A DNA stretch of 43,848 nucleotides from a virus (lineage: Duplodnaviria; Caudoviricetes). Shown here one piece after another: positions 1-43,848 of the stretch; the stretch's first letter is position 1; each line of letters begins with the position of its first letter. The stretch is taken from the IMG/VR virus record IMGVR_UViG_3300010361_000018, positions 1 to 43,848 of that record; one strand, 5' to 3'. The position numbers and the translations under genes are program-made. The notes under the pieces were generated by a model. The model was not told where the DNA came from, made no database searches, and worked only from the letters and a program-made list of their open reading frames with translations.

Positions 1-123
1 ATGTAGGACTGCGCGCCTACTGGCTGACTTGAAGTACCGCCCCCGCCGCCGCCTCCGAACAACCCCCCCGGCATCTACATTGCCCTCATCCAGCCCTGAC
101 CGTCGCTCTTGAAGCCCAAACGA
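1..123. repeat. Terminal direct repeat (identical to 43726..43848); circular assembly overlap
   Basis: The first 123 nt are identical to the last 123 nt; the ORF starting at 43799 also starts at 74. Confidence 0.97.
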
Positions 124-629
124 CGGAAGAAGGCGCCTGCGCTCACTCCGGGGGCAGTGGCAACGAACGTCAGATCAACACCTCTATCTTTAATCTCTTT
201 CAAAAGCGTTTTCCATATCCGGTAACCTGCCCATCCCTCACGGCCCCAAGGCGCCACAAAATGAGCAATCACCCAAGCAACTTTCTTCCCTCTGAACATC
301 AGATGATGATCAATTTGCACGAAAAATGCTGCCGTAATCCTGTCATCAAGCCGGTAAACCAGAACCACTAGCCGACCGATCTCGTTTTGCCAAAGCGCTC
401 TCGGCCAATCAGGAGAAAAATCCGGATAAGGCTTTGACATTGCTTGGCGATAGGACTCAGCAAAAGACGGCCAACTAACATCGGCCAGAAGCTCTTCCAA
501 CTTTTCCCAATCTAGGTAAGATGGACTGGCTAGCTCCGGTCCGGCTTGATGAGGTCCGGCGAGGCTGGCTTCGGTAAGGTGCGGTCTGGTTGGCCCAGAC
601 GAGGTAAGGTATGGTTCGGTGAGGCTCAC
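75..629 (-). CDS. GNAT-family N-acetyltransferase, virion-operon associated
   Basis: GNAT-like motifs HFVAPWGREGWAGYRIWK and AGAFFRRLGF. Likely GTG start at 629 overlaps the endolysin stop (GTGA), with GGAGG 7 nt upstream. The Pro-rich N-terminus is the antisense translation of the 523-627 array. Confidence 0.75.
   Translation of the reverse strand: MSLTEPYLTSSGPTRPHLTEASLAGPHQAGPELASPSYLDWEKLEELLADVSWPSFAESYRQAMSKPYPDFSPDWPRALWQNEIGRLVVLVYRLDDRITAAFFVQIDHHLMFRGKKVAWVIAHFVAPWGREGWAGYRIWKTLLKEIKDRGVDLTFVATAPGVSAGAFFRRLGFKSDGQGWMRAM
495..522 (+). promoter_or_regulatory. Candidate sigma70 promoter for the orphan pentamer array
   Basis: TTCCAA (495-500), 16 nt, TAAGAT (517-522), directly before the array. 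The -35 is weak. Confidence 0.4.
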
Positions 630-640
630 CCCTGAGCCTC
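523..640 (+). ncRNA. Orphan G(G)Y-NN pentamer array (array C), putative guide RNA of the Cas7-like protein, with 3' hairpin
   Basis: 21 consecutive 5-mers all start with G and 15 start with GGY (ggact ggcta gctcc ggtcc ggctt gatga ... ggttc ggtga ggctc). Ends in a perfect 8-bp hairpin GAGGCTCA-cccc-TGAGCCTC (621-640). Confidence 0.85.
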
Positions 641-1426
641 CCATGCCTCCAGCGCAGCCCGCGTCGCCGGGCCAGCAATGCCGTCAAGCATGCCTGAATA
701 CAGCCCCAGCGCCTTCAGGTAGCCCTGAAGCGTCTTGATGGCATCAGCCATTTGTGCTTCTGTAGGCCGGATGGATCGGCCCTGGGTATCAGGTACTCCT
801 GCCGGGACTTGGGGAGCTTGAGAGACAGCAGGCTCCCCCACCTTCCATCCCCCGAAATCATCCACCAGACTCTCGTCCGTATCGACGGACATCCCTTTCA
901 GAACGATCTGCGTCGTCGATCCCTGCTGGATGTGATGCCCCTCAAACCCGGCAGTCCCACGCCAGCCACGCGACTGAGCAAGCCATCCGTGCTCCACAAG
1001 CGCACGCACAGCATTCAGCACCGCGCCCGAGCCATAGACACCCACATTGAACTTTGGCGGCTGCAGCACCGCACGAACCGCTTCAAAGTACGGCAGCACA
1101 CCATTGGTGACCTGCTCCTCAGTGGCATCAAAATCCACGGCAAAGTAGATCGTCGAACCGTCCGGCTGCCCAACCTGCCAAGCCTGTACCAGAGCCGCCT
1201 GCGCATGCATCTTACCGTGCGCGTCATCAAACGTGTCGGGATTGTCCCCCGTCGATTCCCACACGGTAACGATCTGGAGACCATTATCCGAGAGCGCCTT
1301 GGCCTCCCCCGGCGTCAGATCCTTCGCCGCCGATCCACCGTAGTACCGGCAGGCGAAACCAAGTCCGAGATCCGGTAACCTTGAGGCATAAGCCGTCAGG
1401 CTAAAGGCGCAATCGATCCCCTTCAT
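626..1426 (-). CDS. Endolysin: DUF1906 (GH25-like TIM barrel) plus C-terminal peptidoglycan-binding domain
   Basis: GFACRYY...KDLTPGEA...IYFAVDFD...GVYGSG...WLAQS, then LQGYLKALGLYSGMLDGIAGPATRAAL (PG_binding_1). Confidence 0.9.
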   Translation of the reverse strand: MKGIDCAFSLTAYASRLPDLGLGFACRYYGGSAAKDLTPGEAKALSDNGLQIVTVWESTGDNPDTFDDAHGKMHAQAALVQAWQVGQPDGSTIYFAVDFDATEEQVTNGVLPYFEAVRAVLQPPKFNVGVYGSGAVLNAVRALVEHGWLAQSRGWRGTAGFEGHHIQQGSTTQIVLKGMSVDTDESLVDDFGGWKVGEPAVSQAPQVPAGVPDTQGRSIRPTEAQMADAIKTLQGYLKALGLYSGMLDGIAGPATRAALEAWEAQG

Positions 1427-10364: not shown

Positions 10365-11392
10365 CACCAACCCACGATCTTCGTGTTGTTCAGATTGTCG
10401 AATTTCGACCCGAACCACCGCAGGTCCATCTGAACGGTCTGACCCCGGTTGCCACGATCGTCAGCCAAGGCGATGTGATCGGCCATCTCCTGCTTGTAGA
10501 AAGCATTCCACTGCGCCCTGCGGCTATCGTCGGAATACCCCATCAGCCGCTCTGCCAAGAGATCAATCAGAACCTGATCGTCCTGAAACCACGGCAGCAC
10601 CCCATTATTGACCTGCGTCACAGTCAACCGAGGCATCAACCGCTGATACCGGATCATTGCGTTGTATGCCCCGGAGGGCGGCGGGTACGGCAAGCCAATC
10701 CCCGGATAACCGATCCGCAACGAGGCTCCGGCGAACGTCGGCGGCGTTGTCTGTCCGGGACTCGCGAGGCTCGGCACCTGATTCAAGACCAGCGATGACG
10801 CACCACTGTTGACCGATTGAATTAGCGTTCCAGGCGTAATCAACGACAACGGCCCGATCCCGCCCGAGATCGACATGCCGGCAACGATGTTGGTCGTGGA
10901 CGAGAGATTGGCGATGCCCTGATTGCCGATGGTCACATCGCCCGTGACCTCCGCCATCACCGAGTAAGGCGAGAAGTCCTTCGCCCAATAGTAGGGATAA
11001 CTCTGCGTCCCTGCCTGCTGAACCTGATCGTCGAACTGAGAAATGTCGATCTCGATCATGTCACGAGGGACGCCCAGCAAATACCACTTCGACGAGCGCT
11101 GCGCTCCCGTCGCCCCCTGGGCAACACTCACCCGCAGATAATCCATCGGCAGCGGATTTGGCCCTGCTTGGCTGATATTGCCACCAGCGGTCACGGTCAG
11201 AGCGGTATTAAAGGTAAAGTTCCATGTCCCCATCGCCGCGGCAAAATCGAGCGTGCGGCAAATGTGATCGAGAACGGCATTCAGTTCCGTCAGCGCGATC
11301 GGTTCAGTCTGACCCGGCGCCGTACCCGCAGATCCCGAGAACTTCGCTTGATAAGCAGCAAGCCGGATGATGTCTGCGGCGCTGTATGGCAC
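10364..11392 (-). CDS. Head-tail adaptor protein
   Basis: Helical N-terminus (ALTELNAVLD), PLPMDYLR and YPPPSGAY motifs; position before the nozzle. Confidence 0.65.
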   Translation of the reverse strand: MPYSAADIIRLAAYQAKFSGSAGTAPGQTEPIALTELNAVLDHICRTLDFAAAMGTWNFTFNTALTVTAGGNISQAGPNPLPMDYLRVSVAQGATGAQRSSKWYLLGVPRDMIEIDISQFDDQVQQAGTQSYPYYWAKDFSPYSVMAEVTGDVTIGNQGIANLSSTTNIVAGMSISGGIGPLSLITPGTLIQSVNSGASSLVLNQVPSLASPGQTTPPTFAGASLRIGYPGIGLPYPPPSGAYNAMIRYQRLMPRLTVTQVNNGVLPWFQDDQVLIDLLAERLMGYSDDSRRAQWNAFYKQEMADHIALADDRGNRGQTVQMDLRWFGSKFDNLNNTKIVGW

Positions 11393-20699: not shown

Positions 20700-21456
20700 A
20701 GACAGCCGCGATATGACGGGCGAGCGGCAGCGGTATCTTCGCAATCATCGCCGAGGCTTGCTTGCGAGTTAACGACTTACTGCCGGACGAGGTCAGCGAT
20801 TCAGGTGTACGCGTCCCATCGTTGAACCATCGCGTCCCATCGTTGAACCATCGCGTCCCATCGTTGAACCATCGCGTCCCATCCGGCGCCTTAATGACAG
20901 CCGGGCGATGAGGGACGCCCTTGTATCCTCCCCCAGCAGCACACCGCGTAAAATCCTGCCCCCGCTTCTCCCTATCGGACCAATTCATACCCGGCGCCTT
21001 CACACCTTTAAATGTAAAGGGCATCAGCGCCGGCACATCACCCCACAGATAATAGCTCCCGTAGTTCCATCGCGCGCGACCAACCCACTTCTGCGCTCCC
21101 CTGACGTTCTCCACCACCATCGGAATCTTCCGTCCTGCCGCCTCAGACGCCTCGCGCTGTATCCTGAAGCACGCCTCGAACAAGGTGTTGTCCGGCGGCG
21201 GCAATGCCTTCGCCCGCTTCCACGGCATCGCCCGGTAGCTGTACCCCTGACACGGCGGACTCGCCACGATCAGATCCACATCACGGAACTGTGAGCCGTG
21301 CAGCGTCAGCACATCCTGAATCACCATCGTTGTCGGATAGCGGTGCTCACCATACTCATGCCGCTCGATGTCGAAGCCGATGACATCCCACCCCTCAGCC
21401 AACAGCCCCTCGGCCCATCCCCCAAGCCCGCAGAACAGATCAATCGCCAGTGGCAT
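20689..21456 (-). CDS. DNA cytosine-5 methyltransferase
   Basis: Motif I DLFCGLGG, motif IV SPPCQ, motif VI ENV, C-terminal AKIPLPLA. Confidence 0.85.
   Translation of the reverse strand: MPLAIDLFCGLGGWAEGLLAEGWDVIGFDIERHEYGEHRYPTTMVIQDVLTLHGSQFRDVDLIVASPPCQGYSYRAMPWKRAKALPPPDNTLFEACFRIQREASEAAGRKIPMVVENVRGAQKWVGRARWNYGSYYLWGDVPALMPFTFKGVKAPGMNWSDREKRGQDFTRCAAGGGYKGVPHRPAVIKAPDGTRWFNDGTRWFNDGTRWFNDGTRTPESLTSSGSKSLTRKQASAMIAKIPLPLARHIAAVYAP
20810..20883. repeat. 21-bp tandem repeat, 3.5 copies (DGTRWFN) within the methyltransferase
   Basis: CGCGTCCCATCGTTGAACCAT at 20810, 20831 and 20852, plus a partial copy at 20873. Confidence 0.95.
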
Positions 21457-35034: not shown

Positions 35035-35525
35035 TAACTCCCCTCGGTTGGCTGGATACATGGTCTCTTGCCGCCTCCCTGATCCGCAAAGAGCGCCGGG
35101 AGGAGTTGAAGAAGGCCAATGGGCGTCTCGTGGTACGCGAGGGCAAATGGCAGCATCCCGGTACCGTCAAGGATGGTCCATGGGCAGCAATGCGCCAGGC
35201 TATCCAGAAGGCCAATCGCGCCATCCTTGAACGACAGGCCGATCTGGAGATCGCTGAAGTGGTTGTAGAGGAGTTATCCCCCGGTGACTCTTTCCCCTGG
35301 ACCCGCGGCAACGAGGGCGAGGTTTCGTGCTCGGTATTTGTTGTTACGAACCCGAAAGTCGTTATCCTGGTCGGTCAGGCTCGGCCACAAATCCCGTGTG
35401 TTCATATCCCGACAGGCGATGTGGTCGTTTGGGATTCGGGGTTATGGCATAGCAAGATCAACGGCGGTGAAACGACGAGCATTTCACTGAACATGAGATT
35501 GACTAAACGAATAGTCGAAATATGA
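35031..35525 (+). CDS. Cupin / Asp-Asn beta-hydroxylase-like protein, probably degenerate
   Basis: LSPGDSFPW...VVTNP...HIPTGDVVVWD...WHSKINGGET double-stranded beta-helix pattern; the first HxD metal ligands are missing. Confidence 0.55.
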   Translation: MITPLGWLDTWSLAASLIRKERREELKKANGRLVVREGKWQHPGTVKDGPWAAMRQAIQKANRAILERQADLEIAEVVVEELSPGDSFPWTRGNEGEVSCSVFVVTNPKVVILVGQARPQIPCVHIPTGDVVVWDSGLWHSKINGGETTSISLNMRLTKRIVEI

Positions 35526-35526
35526 T
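35499..35526 (+). promoter_or_regulatory. Sigma70 promoter for array A and the Cas7-like gene
   Basis: TTGACT (35499-504), 16 nt, TATGAT (35521-26); the array starts 9 nt later. Confidence 0.75.
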
Positions 35527-35534
35527 GATCCTGA

Positions 35535-35649
35535 GGCAGGCTAAGGTTCGATCGGGATTGGTAAGCAGCGGCCGGATGCGGCTTGCCAAGCCTTGGCAAG
35601 GCTCGGTTGGGTGAGGTAAGGTTTTGTTACCCCGGCAGCTACCGGGTAA
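35535..35649 (+). ncRNA. G(G)Y-NN pentamer array A (putative guide RNA) with 3' hairpin
   Basis: 18 consecutive 5-mers start with G (11 GGY) over 35535-35624, followed by the hairpin TTACCCCGG-cagcta-CCGGGTAA (35627-49). Confidence 0.85.
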
Positions 35650-35671
35650 GAACGCAACATCTTCCACAGAA

Positions 35672-35742
35672 TCCTCTGCGGCCGGTGTTGCGATATCGCA
35701 ACCCCTGATGCGTTCCGGGCGTAGCTGGCCGGCCGCAGAGGA
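35672..35742 (+). promoter_or_regulatory. Structured leader sequestering the RBS of the Cas7-like gene
   Basis: Perfect 14-bp inverted repeat TCCTCTGCGGCCGG / CCGGCCGCAGAGGA enclosing the 16-bp palindrome GTTGCGATATCGCAAC. Confidence 0.7.
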
Positions 35743-35748
35743 CTGAAC

Positions 35749-36393
35749 ATGGCAAGGAAATCTACAGCAGAGGTTATCAGTATCGGCGGCAGCGTCCCAA
35801 CATCGGGCGCCGACGAGATCATAGAATTTTCCGAACCCTACACCGTTGAAGTCGTCATCGAGGGTTCGGCCGACATTCTGTTCCATCGGTGGAACGCGGA
35901 AGCGGTAGACGAGAAGGCGAAAGCTGCCAAAGGCAGCAAAGCCAAAAAGACCGATGATGTTGAGAACTACGTCTATCGTGACGACGCTGGCTTCATCTGC
36001 GTCCCCGGAGAATACCTGCGCGGTGCTATCATCGGAGCAGCTAAGTTCAGGCAAGACCCGCGCTCGCCTCGCAAATCAGCGATGGACTTGTTCAAAGCTG
36101 CTGTTGTCAGCCTGACCCCGCTAGCCTCACTCGGGGTCAAGAAGTGGGATTATGAGGACCGTAGGCGGGTCGTTGTGCAGCGGGCTGGCATCAACCGGAC
36201 GCGGCCGGCAATGCGCGTTGGCTGGAAAGCCACCTTCCTCCTGATGGTGACTTTGCCGGAATACGTCAGCCCTCAGGTGCTGAACGAGGTTATCTCTATG
36301 GCCGGTCGTATCGGTGGCCTTGGAGATTTCCGGCCAACGTATGGACGCTTTAACGTGATTTCATATGGCGTGCTCGGCCGGGACGGGGCATGA
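35749..36393 (+). CDS. Solitary Cas7-like RAMP protein (Vipr-like RNA-guided effector)
   Basis: RAMP signature order: beta1 VEVVIEGSADILFH, YRDDAGFICVPGEYLRGAI, thumb RVVVQRAGINRTRP, W..TF, and G-rich loop AGRIGGLGDFRPTYGRFNV. No other cas genes in the genome. Confidence 0.85.
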   Translation: MARKSTAEVISIGGSVPTSGADEIIEFSEPYTVEVVIEGSADILFHRWNAEAVDEKAKAAKGSKAKKTDDVENYVYRDDAGFICVPGEYLRGAIIGAAKFRQDPRSPRKSAMDLFKAAVVSLTPLASLGVKKWDYEDRRRVVVQRAGINRTRPAMRVGWKATFLLMVTLPEYVSPQVLNEVISMAGRIGGLGDFRPTYGRFNVISYGVLGRDGA

Positions 36394-36501
36394 TTTGGAG
36401 AGGCGAGATGTGACGAGGCGAGGCTGGTAATGATGTGGTGCGCTGGGGACGGGTTTGGCACGACGCGGTATGCATCGGTGAGGTAAGGACGGGCAAGGCT
36501 T
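36367..36501 (+). ncRNA. G(G)Y-NN pentamer array B1 (putative guide RNA)
   Basis: 27 consecutive 5-mers start with G (13 GGY); the first five overlap the end of the RAMP CDS. Confidence 0.85.
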
Positions 36502-36503
36502 CC

Positions 36504-36563
36504 GGCATGATCAGGCTTGGAGGGGTCCGCCAGGTCTCGGTATGGTGGGGCAAGGTACGGTTT
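36504..36563 (+). ncRNA. G(G)Y-NN pentamer array B2 (putative guide RNA)
   Basis: After a 2-nt phase shift, 12 more G-initial 5-mers (8 GGY). Begins GGCATGAT, as B1 does at 36387, and ends at the PurD-like stop codon. Confidence 0.8.
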
Positions 36564-37886
36564 CTAGCTGTACCTCATCCCCATTGCGTAACCGCTCCGC
36601 TGCAACTGAGGCAACTGCCGAGCCAGACGAGAACCTATGTCCGGGCGATGGAAATCATCGGCCGGCATCTTAACGGAGTCCACACGTGAATAGGCGCGTT
36701 GCCTCGCTTCTTGCACAGTTTGCCCGCAGCCGCTCACGATGCAAACATAAGAGCCTGCTGTCGCGAGCCCGGTGGGTCGTTGCACACGACCGTTCTCAAT
36801 TGCAGGCACAGGCGCCGTCATCGCGTTGGCATAGTGTACGTGATCGGATCTACCCCGGTCCTGTATGGGAACCCCCACGACCTCCCCTGGACGCTCGTGC
36901 CCGTATGGAAAGGGCGGAAGCGCCATCACCACCCCCACCGCCACCTCATCCAGTCTACGATGTGCAGCCAATGGCCGCCCCTTTGCTACACTGGCTAGAA
37001 ACTCAATTGGATCGCCATCCCAAAGACTGAGCTCGATGTTGGTAGATGGCCACCCCAAGCGACAGGTCCACTCTAGGGGCCAAGGCTGGCCGTCCTCATC
37101 AATGATACAGTTAACGTCAATATTGGACCTGAACCCAGATGAAACGAGCATATCCTCGAACGGTGCGAGTACCTGTTTTGCCAACTTCGAATGTCGAGTT
37201 AGTCGCAGAACGGTTCCTAATTCGCCAGTATTTGGACCACCTCCTCCAGGAAACATCCGCTTCTCTTCCCAGTTCTCCTCCCACCCCGGCGCAAAGCCGT
37301 GATCCGTCACCCAAGCGCCGACCGCGAACTCGACGCCCTCAACGAGATCCTGCACGATGAACCCTTCAGGAAAGGTCTTGCCTTGACGCTTCCAACTCTC
37401 CAATCGCCAGATGACCCCCTCCGCGGTCTTGCCGACGAAACTGAGAGACTTGTCAGCCATATCCCCGCACGGTTTACAGGCGAAACCCTCACCACGCTTT
37501 GCAACGTAATCAATAGCCTCGTTAATGTTTTGACAGTGGCGATAGGGCGCGACAGGGATTCCCTTCCGGCGGAATGCTGCCATGCCTTGGAGGCGATTGA
37601 GTTCAAGATGAGTTATCTCTTGGGACCCACCAATGACCGGAACTCCCGCGGCTCGTAGCGCGTCAAGCTCGCGCATCCACCTCGTCGAGCCGCAGATGAT
37701 CAAGTCAGCCCAACGGCCTGAAGAACGCCAGTCCGACACACGCTCGACCAAGCCCTTGCCGGTAGGACTCTTGATCGGATCAAACGAGCCACTGAAGTAC
37801 TTAACGGAATGGCCATGCTGCTTGGCCCGGATGGCTAAGTCCAGAAGCCCATCAGAAGCACTCTCGATCAGCAGGATTTTTGCCAT
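36564..37886 (-). CDS. PurD-like (phosphoribosylamine-glycine ligase-like) ATP-grasp protein
   Basis: LELNR..G, ACKPCG, FIVQDLVEGVEF, EEKRMFPGGGGPNTGELG, IDVNCI, PLEWTCRLGWP and RPDIG motifs; divergent from cellular PurD. Confidence 0.85.
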   Translation of the reverse strand: MAKILLIESASDGLLDLAIRAKQHGHSVKYFSGSFDPIKSPTGKGLVERVSDWRSSGRWADLIICGSTRWMRELDALRAAGVPVIGGSQEITHLELNRLQGMAAFRRKGIPVAPYRHCQNINEAIDYVAKRGEGFACKPCGDMADKSLSFVGKTAEGVIWRLESWKRQGKTFPEGFIVQDLVEGVEFAVGAWVTDHGFAPGWEENWEEKRMFPGGGGPNTGELGTVLRLTRHSKLAKQVLAPFEDMLVSSGFRSNIDVNCIIDEDGQPWPLEWTCRLGWPSTNIELSLWDGDPIEFLASVAKGRPLAAHRRLDEVAVGVVMALPPFPYGHERPGEVVGVPIQDRGRSDHVHYANAMTAPVPAIENGRVQRPTGLATAGSYVCIVSGCGQTVQEARQRAYSRVDSVKMPADDFHRPDIGSRLARQLPQLQRSGYAMGMRYS

Positions 37887-42029: not shown

Positions 42030-43799
42030 TCACCACAGCGCGCGAGCGTAATCGACCATCTTGTACCCGCTCGGATGGTACAGAACCGCGTCCGGATTTA
42101 TCCGCTCAACCTCATCGGCCATCACGCCGATAGAGCCAAGGCCAGTGCCCTTGTATCGGTAGGCGTAGAGCGGCAATCCATTCATCGCCATCCCGATCGG
42201 CTCAACGTCAGTCTTCAGACGACGGTCGGAGAAGATTGAGAATATGCTAGGCAAGACGCTAGCAGCCACATCGCCGCCACCCCCGAAGTCACCGCCAAGA
42301 CCAGCCAACAATCCCATGTCGCTGGTCCCAGCATCACCAAGCCCCGCGAGCCCGCCCGTCAGCCCAAGCCCGGAACTGGTGAATGGATTGAGACCTACTT
42401 GCCCCAGCAAGCCGCCGCTCCCGCCGCCCAAACTATTTCCGAAAAGCGTGCTGGCAAGACCACCTAGGCCCTGACCGGAAAGCAGGTTGGTCGCGTTGTT
42501 AAGATACTGACCACTGATCGCACTACCCGTCGCCGACTGACCGAGCCCCAGATAATCCTCTAGGTTGTTCAGCGTCTGCTGCGGCACCGTGTACTGCTGG
42601 TTGCCGAGATTGATGCCCTGGCCCAACGTTGACAACTGGTTGCCGATATTCTGGTTAAAGACATTGTACGGGAGTTGCGAGTACTGAGAGCCCAAATTCA
42701 GCCCAGTACTCAGACCACCCGCGCCCTGCGTCAGCGCATTGCCAGCACCACCCAACAATCCCTGCGCCGTCGTCGCCCCGACATTGCCAGCTTGGTTCCG
42801 CGCGTTCAGCGCCTGAATGATGCTCTGTAGGTTGTTACCATACTGCGCCGACGGCAGCGACTGCGCACCTGCCATCAGACCAGTCGCGCCCTGCCCAAGC
42901 CCTAACCCTGTATTGAAGAGACTGCCTGCCGCGTTGGCTCCCAAGACGTTGGCTTGCAGACCGGACCCGATGAGACCGCCCAGCGTGTTTTGCACGCCCT
43001 GAGCCCCTTGCGCAGCTGCCAACTGCCGATTTTGCAAGTTGTTCTGCCAATCAATGTTGAAGTTCGAGAGCGTCTGATCCGTGACCCCGGCCCCATACGG
43101 CGTCCCCGACAGACCAGACGCCGCGTTGACCGCATTGGCTTGGTCCAACACCTGCTGTTGCGTCCGGTTATAGAGCGCCTGCTGTGGATCAAAGCCGGTG
43201 TTAATCAACGAGGACGCCAGACCCTGCAACGGCGATCCCAACGCCGTGATCTGTTGCCCAGCTTGCGCTCCCAGACCCGGAAGTTGTGCCGCTACTCCAC
43301 CTAGCTGAACGCCACCCTGCGCCGCCTGATCGGCTGCCGTCCGGCCCAAGCCGGCAGCCCAAGACGCCCCCTGCTGCGCCTGCTGCAGATAAGGGTTGGT
43401 CTCAGACAATGAGACGATGTTGGAATAATCCGGGGCAAAGCCACCAGCCAATGCCAACTGAAGATCGGATAGCGGCAGCGCCCCGCCGGCAACTAGATTC
43501 GTGCCCCCGGAGGTAATTCCCGGTACAGCGCCTTGTGCCAACGCATCGTAATTGACCGCAGCTGACTGTGCTCCCGGTGCATAGGGATTATTGTACCCCG
43601 CCGCAACCGATGACTGGACCTGTGGATAATAGGCCTGACCCGGTGTCGTCCCCGCTATCGAGGGGTCGTAAAACAGATGGGCAATGTTCTGAAAGCCCTG
43701 GTCCGCCGTGGCCTGAGCCTGCGGAATGTAGGACTGCGCGCCTACTGGCTGACTTGAAGTACCGCCCCCGCCGCCGCCTCCGAACAACCCCCCCGGCAT
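42030..43799 (-). CDS. Pilot / DNA ejection protein with C-terminal S74-like domain
   Basis: Gly-rich N-terminus, Q/G/A-rich body, C-terminal FSDRRLKTDVEPIG...GVMADEVE...GYKMVDY; follows the GNAT across the circular junction. Confidence 0.75.
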   Translation of the reverse strand: MPGGLFGGGGGGGTSSQPVGAQSYIPQAQATADQGFQNIAHLFYDPSIAGTTPGQAYYPQVQSSVAAGYNNPYAPGAQSAAVNYDALAQGAVPGITSGGTNLVAGGALPLSDLQLALAGGFAPDYSNIVSLSETNPYLQQAQQGASWAAGLGRTAADQAAQGGVQLGGVAAQLPGLGAQAGQQITALGSPLQGLASSLINTGFDPQQALYNRTQQQVLDQANAVNAASGLSGTPYGAGVTDQTLSNFNIDWQNNLQNRQLAAAQGAQGVQNTLGGLIGSGLQANVLGANAAGSLFNTGLGLGQGATGLMAGAQSLPSAQYGNNLQSIIQALNARNQAGNVGATTAQGLLGGAGNALTQGAGGLSTGLNLGSQYSQLPYNVFNQNIGNQLSTLGQGINLGNQQYTVPQQTLNNLEDYLGLGQSATGSAISGQYLNNATNLLSGQGLGGLASTLFGNSLGGGSGGLLGQVGLNPFTSSGLGLTGGLAGLGDAGTSDMGLLAGLGGDFGGGGDVAASVLPSIFSIFSDRRLKTDVEPIGMAMNGLPLYAYRYKGTGLGSIGVMADEVERINPDAVLYHPSGYKMVDYARALW

Positions 43800-43848
43800 C
43801 TACATTGCCCTCATCCAGCCCTGACCGTCGCTCTTGAAGCCCAAACGA
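43726..43848. repeat. Terminal direct repeat (identical to 1..123)
   Basis: Exact duplicate of the window start. Confidence 0.97.

Follow-up and report, generated by a model that had tools for sequence, protein, structure and literature searches.

Array C, a GGY/NN pentamer repeat in a phage genome, is in our reading (probability about 0.7) a VIPR guide lying 7.9 kb from vipr, which loads Vipr and silences GNAT in closely related phages that infect the same cell, with mismatches at the guide's 3' end letting the resident allele escape. The evidence comes from the anatomy of the array, from its gapped match to two GNAT alleles, and from a survey of other Vipr loci.

Results

A VIPR system in a circular phage genome

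The window (the whole stretch of DNA analysed, 43,848 nucleotides) is a circular phage genome of 43,725 bp with a 123-nt terminal repeat (1-123 = 43726-43848), and carries terminase, major head, tail fibre and DNA-ejection genes (Table 1). Its vipr locus is a VIPR system: Vipr, GGY/NN arrays and the one-base skip are all present, and the locus belongs to VIPR by every feature open to computation. The product of ORF 35749-36393, a RAMP homologue with a G-loop standing outside CRISPR, matches SUSP1 Vipr (PDB 36PP) by phmmer (E 1.1e-5, residues 72-203), and matches to the SUSP1 family were also obtained by tblastn. Three arrays (A, B1 and B2) flank this gene, and tandem GGY/NN units are found again in array C, with 16 guide units and further tail units at 523-627. 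Searches of this genome and of the 2.3 Mb of loci retrieved gave no target for arrays A, B1 or B2. No vap gene was recognised beside vipr, no nuclease gene adjoins array C or vipr, and the window contains no CRISPR-like repeat family and no match in an Rfam scan. The leader of 125 nt between array A and vipr (35624-35748) has several short complementary stretches, and the phage gene at 36564-37886 (minus strand), with GARS-like ATP-grasp domains, ends the ejection-gene operon and is convergent on the VIPR locus. Elsewhere, a perfect 21-nt tandem repeat of 3.5 copies lies within a DNA methylase ORF (20810-20883).

Table 1. Coordinates of array C, its target gene and the VIPR locus in the window.
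Feature	Position	Strand	Remarks
GNAT-fold gene, virion module	75..629	-	phrog_1249, E 9e-10; conserved body from ~518
Self copy of the target footprint	381..428	-	GNAT codons YPDFSPDWPRALWQNE; 24/32 read bases
Candidate -10 hexamer TAAGAT	517..522	+	just ahead of unit 2; by eye, weak
Array C, GGY/NN pentamer repeat	523-627	+	units and NN pairs read from the sequence
Degenerate first unit GGA CT	523..527	+	probably not part of the functional guide; matches self by half and L014 not at all
vrRNA guide, units 2-17	528..607	+	putative 3' limit, from the hairpin and the end of the L014 match
Predicted 3' tail hairpin, units 18-21	607..648	+	607-614 with 641-648; 621-628 with 633-640
Endolysin gene	626..1426	-	Rv2525c-like hydrolase and peptidoglycan-binding domain; last codons form the hairpin 3' arm
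Array A	35535..35624	+	18 units; sigma-70-like promoter in front at 35499-35526
vipr gene	35749..36393	+	214 aa, G-loop GRIGGLGDFRPTYGRF; separated from array C by 7,860 nt of the circular genome
Array B1	36367..36501	+	27 units
Array B2	36504..36563	+	12 units; tail hairpin (36540-36590) pairs with last codons of the convergent neighbour
Virion/DNA-ejection protein gene	42030..43799	-	phrog_6121, phrog_4287; starts immediately past the GNAT stop in the circular genome

Array C at the endolysin-GNAT junction

The GNAT gene has two candidate starts, GTG 629, which has GGAGG 7 nt upstream and overlaps the endolysin stop, and TTG 500. In a structure model of the product the first beta-strand is encoded at about 518-504, upstream of TTG 500, and translation probably begins at GTG 629. 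The initial annotation had placed array C inside the GNAT gene; the frame is indeed open from GTG 629, also across some 110 extra bases at the junction, and the extent of translated overlap depends on which of the two starts is used. Because this frame is open and the modelled strand lies ahead of TTG 500, guide C is probably antisense within the translated 5' end of the gene. The open frame in itself says little, since few units of an antisense array could form a stop. Among viral folds, the best matches of the GNAT product are phage GNATs, and PADLOC gave no match for it. According to the accessible part of PMC6775973, podoviruses usually have a GNAT gene next to those for internal virion proteins, and a comparison with T7 gp13 has been made for it.

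The working guide is most likely limited to units 2-17, because units 18-21 pair into the predicted 3' hairpin. We chose this 16-unit window when the homologous allele described below was already known, and the hairpin bounds it independently. Eleven of its 16 scaffold triplets are canonical GGY, the five degenerate ones being GCT, GAT, GCT, GCC and GAC. The hairpin, a prediction from a single copy, has a z-score of -3.18 and was equalled in stability by 1 of 200 shuffles; its 3' arm (633-648) is antisense to the last codons of the endolysin gene, and the tails of arrays A and B do not share its sequence. In both C and B2, two of the genome's four arrays, the closing hairpin takes its 3' arm from the antisense of a convergent neighbour's last codons: the endolysin gene for C and the ATP-grasp gene for B2. 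A promoter scan of positions 300-800 found no site. A perfect TTGACA at 434-439 (plus strand) precedes array C by 90 nt, lacks a good -10 at suitable spacing, and does not occur in L014. Templated birth of the guide, by which the scaffold Y would be left over from the skipped base of the target, was rejected (59 matches against 48 mismatches, p 0.33).

A gapped match to the phage's own GNAT gene

The initial annotation had read the array as a code that skips every third base of the target and spells codons of the GNAT gene, and this observation is confirmed. Its units and NN pairs proved correct, as did the counts: for the minus strand starting at 428, exact matches number 10 of 14 (with 2 half matches) for units 2-15 and 11 of 17 for units 2-18. 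When all 20 units are aligned with the minus strand from 431, 27 of 40 bases agree, and the next best site of the 43,725-bp circle scores 22. With the order of the units shuffled, 27 bases were reached in 1 of 1000 arrays and 11 exact units in 2 of 1000. Free choice of a 14-unit window gave 22 bases in 1 of 300 shuffles and 10 exact units in none of 300, and for units 2-17 the self score of 24/32 bases, with 10/16 units exact, was reached by none of 1000. Only a skip of one base exceeds the background: skips of 0 and 2 bases stay at it (22/40) and a skip of 3 returns the array itself. The target site, roughly 100 nt away from the array, is in register with the GNAT codons, so that the skipped base is the wobble base, and this phase is kept in both the resident allele and that of the relative.

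The further interpretation, that the guide targets the GNAT gene of kin and that the resident allele has diverged, is partly supported. An exact gapped search of IMG/VR with units 2-15, and with a 3' part of the guide, gave 0 hits, so the near-perfect target foreseen there did not appear, and no perfect target for guide C was found. At a match of 75%, the self footprint may still be bound by Vipr.

An array-less relative

The nearest GNAT homologue (73%) lies on a contig, L014, that has the same order of endolysin, GNAT and ejection genes and lacks the array at the junction, where the window carries the extra bases. Per 100 nt, the two sequences are 83-96% identical downstream and 66-76% over most of the GNAT gene. 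Over 75-900, in the GNAT gene and the end of the endolysin gene, identity falls to 60-79% per 100 nt; this island of divergence adjoins DNA of 83-96%, as if by a cassette swap.

Guide C fits L014 better than self. Over units 2-17 the relative scores 27/32 bases (84%) with 13/16 units exact, against 24/32 (75%) and 10/16 for the resident allele, and none of 2000 shuffles reached 27/32 in L014. This is also the top site for guide C in the 2.3 Mb of fetched loci, the next scoring 22. Over units 2-17 only, the non-self target has at least 80% of its NN bases matched and self falls below; over all 20 units the scores are 28/40 for L014 and 27/40 for self (13 and 11 exact), neither reaching 80%. The seven 3' units (11-17) are perfect in L014 and have 3 mismatches in self, while units 4, 6 and 10 miss both alleles alike. 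Thus the expectation that homologous GNAT genes of array-less phages would match better than self is borne out by this one allele, though not as a near-perfect match.

The informative differences between the two alleles (R/K, N/E and E/K), all at the 3' end of the guide, favour L014 in 3/3 cases, as would be expected had the resident allele diverged to escape. The footprint, however, shows no excess divergence from L014 (5/32 read positions, against 61/256 in the rest of the GNAT gene), and divergence in order to escape guide C is weakly supported in this genome. L014 is the only close allele available for comparison (n=1). There were no GNAT relatives in IMG/VR and one weak match among GenBank phages, and a metagenome scan returned L014 and the window's own record only. 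One metagenome run (X2) gave pieces about 95-98% alike in or beside the endolysin gene and near 1-161, and a contig with loose ends at 460 and 494 that by eye reads as the L014 allele. Positions 201-400 and 501-700 have no cover in this run, a gap that proves nothing, and the run is not independent of L014 because it may be the source of that contig.

These comparisons bear on the view that array C is a relic, a real guide that no longer works or whose true target is a third, unsampled allele, its likeness to self being leftover homology. The five degenerate scaffold triplets, the three units that miss both known alleles and the lack of a promoter detected by the scan would all suit such a relic. 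Against it, the arrays beside vipr are equally degenerate (11/18 and 13/27 canonical units in A and B), internal degeneracy is frequent in VIPR (10.64898/2026.04.26.720920), the tail hairpin is intact, and the seven 3' units are perfect in an existing relative. We regard a relic as quite unlikely.

Nearby self-matches across Vipr loci

GGY/NN arrays were found beside the gene in 13/13 Vipr loci first fetched, and an initial scan, covering 38 arrays from 13 records, revealed further self-matches near arrays. The survey was extended to 137 Vipr loci (52 from cellular genome contigs) with 366 arrays, 242 of them non-redundant; duplicate records L004, L050, L108 and L109 were removed before the clade count, and P0004, a repeat artefact, was left out of alignment A1. 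With a skip of 1, 12/242 arrays have a self-match within 500 nt at p<=0.01, as compared with 1 for skip 0 and 0 for skip 2 (p-values from 200 shuffles for skip 1 and 100 for the controls; 2 of the 12 strongest cases, L003 and L013, had prompted the test). Self-matches of at least 16/20 number 20 within 500 nt, where 1.0 is expected, and 30 beyond that distance, where 30.1 are expected; the skip 0 control gives 2 against 1.7. When the longest open frame was taken by a blind rule, the skip fell on the third codon position in 14/19 top cases (p 0.0004). Partial self-matches therefore pile up within 500 nt of arrays, mostly in wobble phase, and the signature marks roughly 5-8% of the arrays of this Vipr clade. 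The genes matched, with functions judged by motifs, we take to be vipr itself, DNA-metabolism genes and virion genes.

Homologous alleles were present in the panel for 9/19 top cases, leaving 10/19 with no allele for comparison. Some allele scores above self in 6 of these 9 cases (for example 22 to 17, and 22 to 18, of 24) and most alleles do so in 4, whereas none does in 3; in two cases the better alleles are a minority (2/17 and 5/18), and three of the nine come from one contig, L150. In the spelled residues, the G001 guide reads GAL where self has GSI, and GAL occurs in 4/4 homologues; the L013 guide reads Y where self has F, and Y occurs in 15/23. Against the guide of L055, 44/70 other vipr alleles score higher than the self allele.

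Some individual loci deserve mention in their own right. L150 carries three separate arrays (5368, 6771 and 12957), each partly matching its adjacent gene. In L055 the guide (10597-10671) sits directly behind vipr and matches its own vipr G-loop codons at 18/20. A guide of L011 (8645-8734) matches its own ejection-like gene 5.9 kb away (2776) at 21/24 and in wobble phase, above the published self threshold of 80%. The match of L072 is out of wobble phase with vipr and probably due to chance.

Chance gapped matches do arise in large collections; the G001 guide has an exact gapped match of 22 bases in IMG/VR, at an unrelated antisense site, which we attribute to chance. That array C matches nearby sequence merely by chance is, however, extremely improbable and refuted by the shuffles in the genome (0/1000 reaching 24/32) and in L014 (0/2000 reaching 27/32) together with the clade distance count, the site being adjacent, in frame and better in the homologue.

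The adjacency of the match, the self score of 24/32, and the recurrence of nearby partial self-matches in the clade (in L055 in vipr itself) also raise the question of cis-regulation, in which guide C would bring Vipr to its own neighbouring gene by partial pairing and tune or repress it, like the CreA/CreR RNAs. CRISPR-like guide RNAs of CreTA/CreR do repress, in the accounts of that system available in part, and an antisense transcript could add to such an effect. Self-regulation does not, however, predict that the mismatches to self should spell residues of real homologues; the targets lie in coding regions and in wobble phase, and the GNAT gene looks like part of the virion module rather than a toxin (phrog_1249, no PADLOC match, phage GNAT folds). 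We consider cis-regulation unlikely and favour the targeting of kin.

Discussion

If guide C is directed at kin, array C would be transcribed and loaded onto Vipr, and the complex of Vipr with vrRNA C would bind the GNAT gene of closely related co-infecting phages. Since GNAT is the first gene ahead of the ejection genes, bound Vipr could block transcription into them, and the block at GNAT may cripple the virions of the rival. The phage itself would be spared through the mismatches at the 3' end of the guide. The placement of the guide may also be accounted for. A guide against a gene shared with kin would harm recombinants lacking the resistant allele, and a guide would persist only if it were in close linkage with that allele, as in the case of free-standing homing endonucleases. 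The steep fall of self-matches with distance fits this argument, in which the guide survives recombination only together with the resistant allele. More tentatively, and we doubt it more than we believe it, kin-directed VIPR guides may be RNA-guided, nuclease-free allelic drives, lodged at the target locus, or even within the target gene, with the neighbour's end as their tail, which silence or block the rival allele during mixed infection so that recombinants carrying both guide and resistant allele are favoured. Such a drive would amount to intronless homing by silencing.

The code, the argument that wobble changes cannot escape it, and lower self-scores are already published for VIPR. In the parts of the VIPR reports available (10.64898/2026.04.26.720920; 10.64898/2026.04.26.720927; 10.64898/2026.10.15.759431), targets are read with a one-base skip in wobble alignment and repressed on either strand, and Vipr filaments read the NN pairs, apparently assembling 3'-to-5' from the tail end. 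Arrays typically have 9-16 GGY/NN units. Guides aimed at rival vrRNAs score lower against self than against non-self (10.64898/2026.10.15.759431), and a further paper, as far as its text is accessible, merely recovers VIPR arrays. The present locus shares with VIPR the GGY/NN repeats, the one-base skip, the wobble alignment, a small RAMP-like Vipr carried by a phage, and predicted targets in competing phages; a structured 3' tail, found in VIPR, is predicted here. It differs in the position of guide C, which lies far from vipr and antisense at the 5' end of the resident homologue of the target, in having no recognisable vap beside vipr, and in its tail, a hairpin on the neighbour's last codons where that of SUSP1 is a pseudoknot. 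No self-hits of at least 80% are reported in the accessible portions of bioRxiv 10.64898/2026.04.26.720920 / 10.64898/2026.04.26.720927; self here is at 75%.

Solo or orphan vrRNAs (10.64898/2026.10.15.759431) are likewise stand-alone guides against relatives with self scores below non-self ones. Their targets, however, are vipr, vrRNAs, satellites and REP elements, whereas guide C has as its target a core gene of the virion module, situated at its own locus. Their definition requires that the contig carry no Vipr, or have none within 20 kb, and array C falls outside it, vipr being 7,860 nt away. With the free-standing homing endonucleases and marker exclusion of T-even phages, as described in the part of PMC2988022 available, it shares the attack of an element on a co-infecting relative's DNA near its own locus; the cleavage sites given in the same part lie hundreds to thousands of bases from the endonuclease gene. 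With PhiPA3 gp210 (PMC11620839, likewise in part) it shares interference with the progeny of a rival. Unlike both, as far as these sources go, the present locus relies on RNA for recognition and shows no evident nuclease, and array C at most works alike without being a member of either group. CreTA/CreR, going by the portion of its literature at hand, resembles it in a small guide that partly matches a nearby gene and an effector encoded elsewhere, and differs in effector and code, in that the neighbouring gene cannot be recognised as a toxin, and in that this guide fits a relative better than self. A guide lying beside its own copy of the target was not found in the accessible text of the VIPR literature, the data tables of which could hold cases, and no publication linking vrRNA to homing was found.

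What this case adds is a direct comparison of a natural guide with its resident allele and with the allele of an array-less rival, and a clade-wide count in which guides cluster within 500 nt of their own copy of the target. Data on mismatch tolerance or seed position in VIPR were not found in the published text as far as it is accessible, and natural pairs of sensitive and resistant alleles such as this one are supplied for measuring both. If real, the arrangement would explain how an RNA guide can target genes shared with kin without harm to its own phage, and why such guides lie where they do.
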